The notes under the pieces: generated by a model
The model's database searches: none
Told to the model about the DNA's origin: nothing
The model's input: the letters and a program-made list of their open reading frames with translations, nothing else
Source: Oligoflexia bacterium
Lineage (GTDB): Bacteria > Bdellovibrionota > UBA1018
Assembly (NCBI GenBank): GCA_031292385.1
Contig: JARLHE010000030.1
Span: 48,682-80,681, forward strand
Direction: 5' to 3'
DNA: 32,000 nt
Made by a program: the position numbers and the translations under genes
In this document: in pieces, positions 21,686 to 21,736 of the stretch
How positions within the stretch are numbered: position 1 is the stretch's first letter
How the letters are laid out: every line of letters begins with the position of its first letter

Positions 21686-21688
21686 AGA

Positions 21689-21736
21689 ATTAACTTTACT
21701 TAACAAACTAAAGAAAGGCAAACTATTTTAGTCAGG
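21689..21736 (-). promoter_or_regulatory. Conserved promoter block, copy 1 (predicted leaderless start of the gltF-like operon)
   Basis: 41 of 48 nt are identical to 30251-30298. The minus strand reads TTGCCT (21716-21721), a 17-nt spacer, TAAAGT (21693-21698), then 7 nt to ATG 21685. There is no Shine-Dalgarno. Confidence 0.55.

Follow-up and report, generated by a model that had tools for sequence, protein, structure and literature searches.

A 48-nt block shared by two consecutive Agl/Glt-like operons of an Oligoflexia bacterium: a probable promoter with a putative operator and predicted leaderless mRNAs

Two minus-strand operons of an Oligoflexia bacterium (Bdellovibrionota; assembly GCA_031292385.1) begin directly behind nearly the same 48 nt. 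Is this block a promoter, what would read it, and could transcription start on the first codon itself, as proposed earlier from the letters of the DNA only (hereafter the sequence-only reading)? Below, the window designates the whole stretch of 32,000 nt that was analysed (contig JARLHE010000030.1, positions 48,682 to 80,681 of the forward strand), and coordinates refer to it unless stated otherwise. The features under discussion are the following:

21689-21736, minus strand: probable promoter block of operon 1 (copy A), recognised from the sequence, the repeat search and the orthologous sites, with an UP-like AAAATA, the -35 TTGCCT (21720-21715), TGTTAA (21703-21698) inside a 17-nt spacer, the -10 TAAAGT (21697-21692) and TAA (21691-21689)
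21683-21685, minus strand: ATG of an 87-aa secreted protein (weakly CglF/GltF-like), separated from the -10 by 7 nt and expected to be the +1 of a predicted leaderless mRNA
30251-30298, minus strand: probable promoter block of operon 2 (copy B), recognised from the sequence, the consensus scan, the repeat search and the orthologous sites, with the -35 TTGCAA (30283-30278), a 17-nt spacer containing TGTTAA (30266-30261), the -10 TATAGT (30260-30255) and TAA
30246-30248, minus strand: ATG of the gene that opens operon 2 (344-aa membrane-anchored protein), separated from the -10 by 6 nt, its A falling on the canonical +1
16518-21685, minus strand: conserved core of operon 1 (domain searches; synteny in six relatives), in order the 87-aa gene, a 513-aa GltG-like protein (AgmX/PglI C-terminal domain), a 287-aa outer-membrane barrel (OMP_myx_plus), a 634-aa TPR protein and a 193-aa GYF protein (GltJ-like)
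15013-16020 and 14303-15016, minus strand: histidine kinase and OmpR-type regulator, which with a 158-aa gene before them make up the tail of operon 1 in this genome
23920-30248, minus strand: operon 2 (domain searches; orthologues in relatives), in order the 344-aa protein, a MotA/ExbB-type channel, two ExbD/TolR proteins and a 1215-aa TPR protein (GltD-like)
21783-23929, no strand assigned: inserted two-gene cassette, recognised from its inverted repeats and from relatives that lack it

Two copies of one block before two operons

Both blocks lie on the minus strand, agree at 41 of 48 positions without gaps by our own count, and end 3 nt (copy A) and 2 nt (copy B) before the first ATG of their operon, exactly as had been claimed; a repeat search of the window returned the same two blocks as a single family (48 nt, 85% identity, no gaps). 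When copy A was compared with both strands of the host assembly (3.39 Mb, 56.5% G+C; 6.8 million positions), copy B scored 41/48 and nothing else exceeded 30/48, which excludes chance as the source of the resemblance, and the patterns derived from the block matched at copies A and B only. The likeness stops at the block borders, the flanks being unrelated, so that the block is not a portion of a longer repeat; with two copies only and a next best match of 30/48, it does not behave as a mobile or dispersed repeat either, and the objection that the sequence-only reading had raised against itself, i.e., a block lying within a larger repeated element, can be set aside. On the coding strand, the two copies read TTGCCT-17 nt-TAAAGT-7 nt-ATG (operon 1) and TTGCAA-17 nt-TATAGT-6 nt-ATG (operon 2), the latter site also being recovered by a promoter consensus scan, in agreement with the TTGC-type -35, the 17-nt spacer and the -10 located 6-7 nt before the ATG that had been described.

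What do these operons encode? The Agl-Glt gliding machinery is reportedly specified by gene clusters of Myxococcus xanthus that have homologues in Bdellovibrio. In the window, Pfam profiles recovered one MotA_ExbB domain (E 5e-26) and two ExbD domains (E ~1e-14), i.e., a motor of one MotA/ExbB and two ExbD proteins, beside GltG-, GltD- and GltJ-like scaffold genes. NCBIfam profiles recovered the AgmX/PglI C-terminal domain (103.6 bits for a cut-off of 40) and OMP_myx_plus (72.9 bits for a cut-off of 60), and a GYF domain was found in operon 1. The likeness to the Agl-Glt clusters thus covers the MotA/ExbB with its two ExbD/TolR, the GltG-like AgmX/PglI protein, the myxobacterial-type barrel, the large TPR proteins and the GYF protein. 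In contrast to these clusters, the motor and scaffold genes form here one contiguous two-promoter cluster, and the GltG, GltC and CglF equivalogs score far under their own NCBIfam cut-offs, so that the proteins are distant homologues, a level at which the label “Glt-like” seems fair. In the literature searched, no shared promoter motif is described for the Agl-Glt clusters of Myxococcus or Bdellovibrio, and the gliding genes of the Bdellovibrio group are not linked to a promoter motif or to leaderless mRNAs.

The two halves of the machine had been considered as physically split. Between them, two inverted repeats of 40 nt (21783-21822 and 23890-23929; 95% complementary) enclose a cassette of two genes, namely a minus-strand DUF4423/HTH gene and a plus-strand gene for 302 aa. 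This cassette, with its DUF4423/HTH gene, is missing from all 29 relatives checked, and in relatives the GltD-like gene of operon 2 runs directly into the promoter of operon 1. By this comparison, only the present genome has had a cassette inserted between operon 2 and the operon 1 promoter, the cluster being contiguous rather than split in relatives.

Two neighbours of the cluster deserve mention. A second MotA/ExbB-ExbD-TonB_2 set (873-6548, minus strand; genes at 4783-5493, 4346-4780 and 3559-4341), flanked by genes of 361, 453 and 426 aa, looks Tol-Pal-type and is syntenic with the Glt-like cluster in the relatives G001 and G006. At the other end, a Flp/Fap-type pilin gene (MKLHLRNFCRAFYKDERGQSTTEYILILSVVV...; 30425-30650, plus strand) diverges from operon 2, with a gene for a prepilin-peptidase-like membrane protein behind it; both also occur, as a pair, upstream of operon 2 in the relative G017.

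Conservation and anatomy of the block across the family

Other genera of the family, and of its order, have a recognisable version of the block upstream of their 344-aa gene orthologues. To describe it, we compiled 44 sites from many genera, located before operon 1 and operon 2 orthologues by a 16-nt core in which TTTG was not used. With at most two mismatches, this core precedes 28 of 30 operon 1 orthologues and 16 of 18 operon 2 orthologues; in the two operon 1 orthologues devoid of it, the operon sits immediately behind the preceding gene. Once the sites are aligned, TTTG appears at one fixed register (41-43 of 44 sites at each of its four positions), and the information content is about zero outside positions -24 to +20 of the alignment. 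Such a confinement of conservation to the motif corresponds to a classical phylogenetic footprint, and the same motif at orthologous sites across the family argues for the block being, as had been suggested, a promoter common to both Glt-like operons.

How exclusive is the motif? The exact pattern TTTG-N13-15-TGTTAA-N6-TTAA has zero to two matches per genome and is present in 12 of 18 family genomes, for none in the reversed control; except for one intragenic match in the relative G005, all family matches lie directly before operon 1 or operon 2 orthologues. Among 401 genomes of the phylum, it was found in 22 of the 57 genomes of the host's family and in the single genome of the sister family, and elsewhere only twice, with a different gap. 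A search of 185,579 species genomes (one per species, 596 Gb) with an 18-base version of the pattern yielded 95 loci, of which 18 belong to genomes labelled Bdellovibrionota and all precede Glt genes (18/18), the other 77 being located in mostly AT-rich genomes without Glt genes. When TTTG is dropped, the core alone gives 43 forward matches vs. 12 control matches in 75 genomes, and eleven extra core sites retrieved from relatives have no TTTG and no common downstream gene, their number equalling the control level. In the genomes searched, the full motif therefore marks these two operons and no others. The scan that had been advised for further gliding or envelope operons carrying the motif thus ended, in the host and its relatives alike, with these two sites. 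In the host, a perfect 16-nt core on contig 32 (19341-19356 of that contig, plus strand) was considered as a third member of the regulon and discarded for want of TTTG at the -35 register. This core, TGTTAAATAAATTTAA, lies within a larger AGTTAC...GTAACT palindrome; the gene 50 nt downstream of it encodes a membrane protein of 162 aa and has a normal Shine-Dalgarno site. An identical 16-mer in the relative G016 has no related neighbour.

The 44 sites share the consensus aaaT-TTTGC-N12-TGTTAA-n-TAnaaT-TAA in a fixed register. With the TAnaaT hexamer numbered -12 to -7, the profile comprises an A-tract around -42 to -40, TTGCnt at -35 to -30, a T-rich 17-nt spacer, TGTTAA at -19 to -14, TAnaaT itself and TAA at -6 to -4. 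Both hexamers are where a sigma-70-type factor would need them: the first, TTGCCT or TTGCAA in the host, has TTG in 41-43 of the 44 sites per position, and the T, A and T of TAnnnT are conserved in 42, 43 and 44 of the 44 sites, always in the same register. In two genomes, the -35 register reads TAGACA instead of TTGCnt, i.e., another approximation of TTGACA, which argues that the element is read as a -35. Altogether, the family-wide conservation of TTTG(C), TGTTAA, TAnaaT and TAA in a sigma-70 register supports the claim that the block is a promoter.

At Glt promoters, TGTTAA and TAA are bases of the invariant type in spite of lying outside the sigma-70 consensus positions. With the -10 between them, they make up a palindrome of 18 bp (halves TGTTAAnTA and nAaTTAAya), imperfect in general but perfect in several genomes, the pattern then matching on both strands. 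Of its two halves, the right one is the weaker (C/T at position 16, A/T at position 17). TTAA being self-complementary, direct and inverted symmetry are not separable in this element. The shared regulator site announced by the sequence-only reading was another one, a direct repeat of TAGTTTG. That repeat is not conserved in the 44-site profile and is peculiar to this genome, whereas the idea of a common site may survive in TGTTAA-N6-TTAA, which overlaps the -10 and is our candidate instead.

Finally, the two promoters of a genome resemble each other more than orthologous promoters do (identity at variable positions of 0.51 vs. 0.42, permutation p ~0.007). This likeness fits a common trans factor or gene conversion, and base composition could explain part of it. 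In 15 family genomes with both promoters (e.g., G055, G008, G003 and G054), odd spacer bases are common to the two copies, such as TTTGATT twice in G003, TTTGT twice in G054 and TTTGCGC in G055; such sharing within genomes suggests concerted evolution.

Start codons and leaderless geometry

Both first genes start with an ATG without a Shine-Dalgarno site, for which there is too little space between the -10 and the ATG (upstream letters taattct in operon 1 and taatac in operon 2). Seven internal genes of the two operons do have sites of the GGAG/GGAGG type, which upholds the contrast drawn earlier between these two ATGs and the GGAG-type sites elsewhere. The start codons themselves appear secure: the signal peptide of the 87-aa protein and the membrane anchor of the 344-aa protein start exactly at the ATG, an in-frame TAA lies two codons upstream of the latter, and an audit of both genes returned no usable alternative start with a ribosome-binding site.

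Across the family, at least 3 nt separate the end of the motif from the start codon; with this minimum, the A of the ATG occupies the seventh base behind the hexamer, i.e., the canonical +1. For operon 1, distances are bimodal, either 3-10 nt without a Shine-Dalgarno site (16 sites) or 17-39 nt, most of them with a GGAG-like site (12 sites), and about 13 of the 16 short cases proved robust in a start-codon audit. For operon 2, a leader of 12-45 nt with a Shine-Dalgarno site is the rule, and the 3-nt distance is limited to this genome and the relative G006.

Would such a geometry be isolated in the host? Among its 2504 longest-ORF starts, TAnnnT lies exactly 6 nt before the start in 120 cases, vs. 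about 25-45 at most other gaps. A stop-codon artefact is excluded, since the 6-nt peak remains with TAYnnT, a pattern incompatible with an in-frame stop. This positional enrichment of -10 hexamers is accompanied by a -35: in the 6-nt class, TTG occupies -35 to -33 and TG -15/-14, with neither TGTTAA nor TAA. The host would thus possess sigma-70-type leaderless promoters, at an estimated 70-100 genes, an estimate useful for gene-start annotation in metagenome-assembled Bdellovibrionota. Since this general class is devoid of TGTTAA and TAA, these extra bases belong specifically to the Glt promoters.

Leaderless mRNAs transcribed from sigma-70-type promoters are well known, from lambda cI (promoter PRM) to the numerous genes of this kind in Actinobacteria and Deinococcus. 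The Glt blocks resemble these promoters by a -10 located 6-7 nt before the ATG, the lack of a Shine-Dalgarno site and a -35 TTG at a 17-nt spacing, and the host displays a whole class of such starts. They differ from them in three respects: the extra invariant TGTTAA and TAA, the retention of the block family-wide at two specific operons, and its being leaderless in some genera and Shine-Dalgarno-led in others, with a start that is predicted from geometry. The comparative geometry therefore lends good, if indirect, support to the leaderless transcripts foreseen for this genome, which are a prediction for both mRNAs. In copy A, the ATG comes 8 nt after the hexamer and, in copy B, transcription could also begin on an A located two bases before the ATG; the mRNAs of operons 1 and 2 may have leaders of 1-2 nt. 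One promoter existing in leaderless and Shine-Dalgarno-led forms across related genera offers a clean comparison of modes of translation initiation, and it is the unusually strong intergenic conservation over dozens of genera, combined with this repeated interchange, that makes the block of interest.

Readers and candidate regulators of the two probable promoters

Given the repeat, its conservation, its exclusivity to the two operons and its geometry, all of which are observed, the blocks are probably the promoters of two consecutive Agl/Glt-like operons, read by sigma-70, with a putative operator and predicted leaderless mRNAs. Each block would drive one of the two operons of the envelope machine. 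We infer the sigma factor, the transcription start, and the existence and sign of a regulator as follows. A housekeeping sigma-70-type factor would be the simplest reader of the A-tract, TTGCnt, the 17-nt spacer and TAnaaT. The predicted transcription start, 7-8 nt behind the -10, falls on the A of the ATG in both first genes, so that both mRNAs would be leaderless and translated without a Shine-Dalgarno site. The 18-bp palindrome would be the operator of one putative dimeric regulator, most likely a repressor since it covers the -10, which would switch operons 1 and 2 together; their co-regulation appears well supported by the comparison of genomes.

A first rival hypothesis is that no separate regulator exists and that TTTGC ... 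TGTTAAnTAnaaTTAA as a whole is recognised by an alternative factor of the sigma-70 family, reserved for the gliding-type machine, of which the extra invariant bases could be the contacts in the spacer and the discriminator. TGTTAA and TAA are indeed as invariant as the -35 and -10 and are missing from the general leaderless class of the host, the motif is limited to two promoters per genome, and the host encodes, beyond RpoD, three mid-sized sigma-70-family proteins and an ECF-sized one. However, the -35/-10 register and the spacer equal those of the general sigma-70-type class of the host, and the -35 drifts toward TTGACA in the two genomes with TAGACA. A factor reserved for two promoters would also be unusual: with only five sigma-70-family genes, a dedicated sigma is possible but less likely than a regulator. 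Nor do known alternative consensuses match. Sigma-54 promoters have GG at -24 and GC at -12 (TGGCAC-N5-TTGCW); the block does contain TTGC, but the bases 5-11 nt upstream of it are A/T-rich, with no GG, and it fits neither this -24/-12 arrangement nor an ECF-type AAC/CGT promoter. In the attack phase of Bdellovibrio bacteriovorus, FliA (sigma-28) promoters follow TTAAG-N16-CCGATA, with about 90 occurrences per genome (Karunker et al. 2013, PMC3627812). Like the Glt motif, they consist of a lineage-typical motif that contains TTAA and ties related genes of a predator. In contrast, the Glt motif has another spacing and only two promoters per genome, and no CCGATA-like element was found anywhere in the 44-site profile, so that it does not match the FliA consensus. 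We therefore consider a dedicated sigma factor to be unlikely.

Very improbable, in our opinion, is a second hypothesis, according to which the block is a conserved 5' untranslated element, transcribed from a start further upstream and acting on the RNA (Shine-Dalgarno-independent translation, stability). The block is AT-rich and, in this genome, directly precedes start codons without a Shine-Dalgarno site, and read-through from operon 2 into the adjacent operon 1 is possible in relatives. Yet, anything from 3 to 45 nt lies between it and the start codon, which fits a promoter, an untranslated element being expected at a fixed distance, and a normal Shine-Dalgarno site stands between motif and start wherever there is a leader. 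Moreover, conservation falls on -35 and -10 hexamers 17 nt apart, no start codon comes nearer than the canonical +1, and the sequence upstream of the block is not conserved. As to structure, none is predicted in the blocks (z-scores of +1.6 and +0.3), and a search of them against Rfam returned no match.

Next to no chance is left to a third hypothesis, in which the block would belong to a mobile or recombining repeat, or would be a bidirectional promoter also serving the divergent Flp-pilin gene, its position near the gene starts being incidental. A sigma-70-like TTAACA-18-TATTTT does lie on the opposite strand of both copies, a Flp-type pilin gene does diverge from operon 2 and a hairpin-flanked cassette does lie 47 nt from copy A. 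But the genome holds two copies only, their likeness ends at the block, and the sites are orthologous in about 40 genomes whose neighbouring genes differ. On the plus strand, there is no gene that copy A could serve, and the opposite-strand -10 requires an A where 31 of 44 sites have a T, the opposite-strand match being discarded as not conserved in the family.

Returning to a sigma-70-read promoter with an operator, each of its components is of a known kind, as are leaderless mRNAs, while the element itself is undescribed in the searchable literature. Symmetric operators are exemplified by those of E. coli DeoR, by the TyrR box (TGTAAA-N6-TTTACA) and by the CtrA box (TTAA-N7-TTAAC). The Glt element shares with these sites an AT-rich symmetric stretch of 16-18 bp, with TTAA/TGTTA half-sites about one helical turn apart. 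It departs from the DeoR and TyrR sites by its inner bases and from the CtrA box by having N6 between the TTAA tracts in all 44 sites, not N7. As a promoter/operator of 33 nt, it would provide a testable handle on the switching of surface motility in uncultured predator-like bacteria and could act as bait for fishing out the regulator.

Which protein might this regulator be? In the neighbourhoods of relatives, no conserved DNA-binding gene was found next to the cluster. The DUF4423/HTH gene beside copy A was rejected, as it belongs to the host-specific cassette and is absent from 29/29 relatives checked. The OmpR-type regulator and kinase of operon 1 were rejected as the cognate factors, their occurrence not tracking the motif: the regulator is missing from 13 of 22 motif-bearing genomes, and a genus that has it in 9/9 genomes is devoid of the motif. 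Together with the N6 spacing in 44/44 sites, this speaks against a CtrA-type or OmpR-family box. As for a conserved regulator upstream of operon 2, the neighbours vary at that place (Flp pilin, receiver-TPR protein, others).

Only tentatively would we go one step further and consider TGTTAA-N6-TTAA(CA) as the operator of a lineage-specific master regulator, devoted to the gliding-type machine only and co-evolved with both promoters, with leader switches tuning translation. If true, this co-evolution would explain the likeness of the two promoters within a genome, the repeated switches between leaderless and Shine-Dalgarno-led forms would tune the translation of the first gene to lifestyle, and the family would represent a natural experiment on the gain and loss of mRNA leaders.

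Two observations on genes around the operons can be added. Orthologues of the kinase-OmpR pair (14303-16020, minus strand), with 54-69% identity, are found a few kb downstream of operon 1 in at least nine family genomes. In the relatives G003 and G028, a protein of more than 330 aa is encoded on the same strand just before the operon 2 promoter; it is 51% identical between the two genomes and consists of a receiver-like segment followed by a TPR-like sequence.
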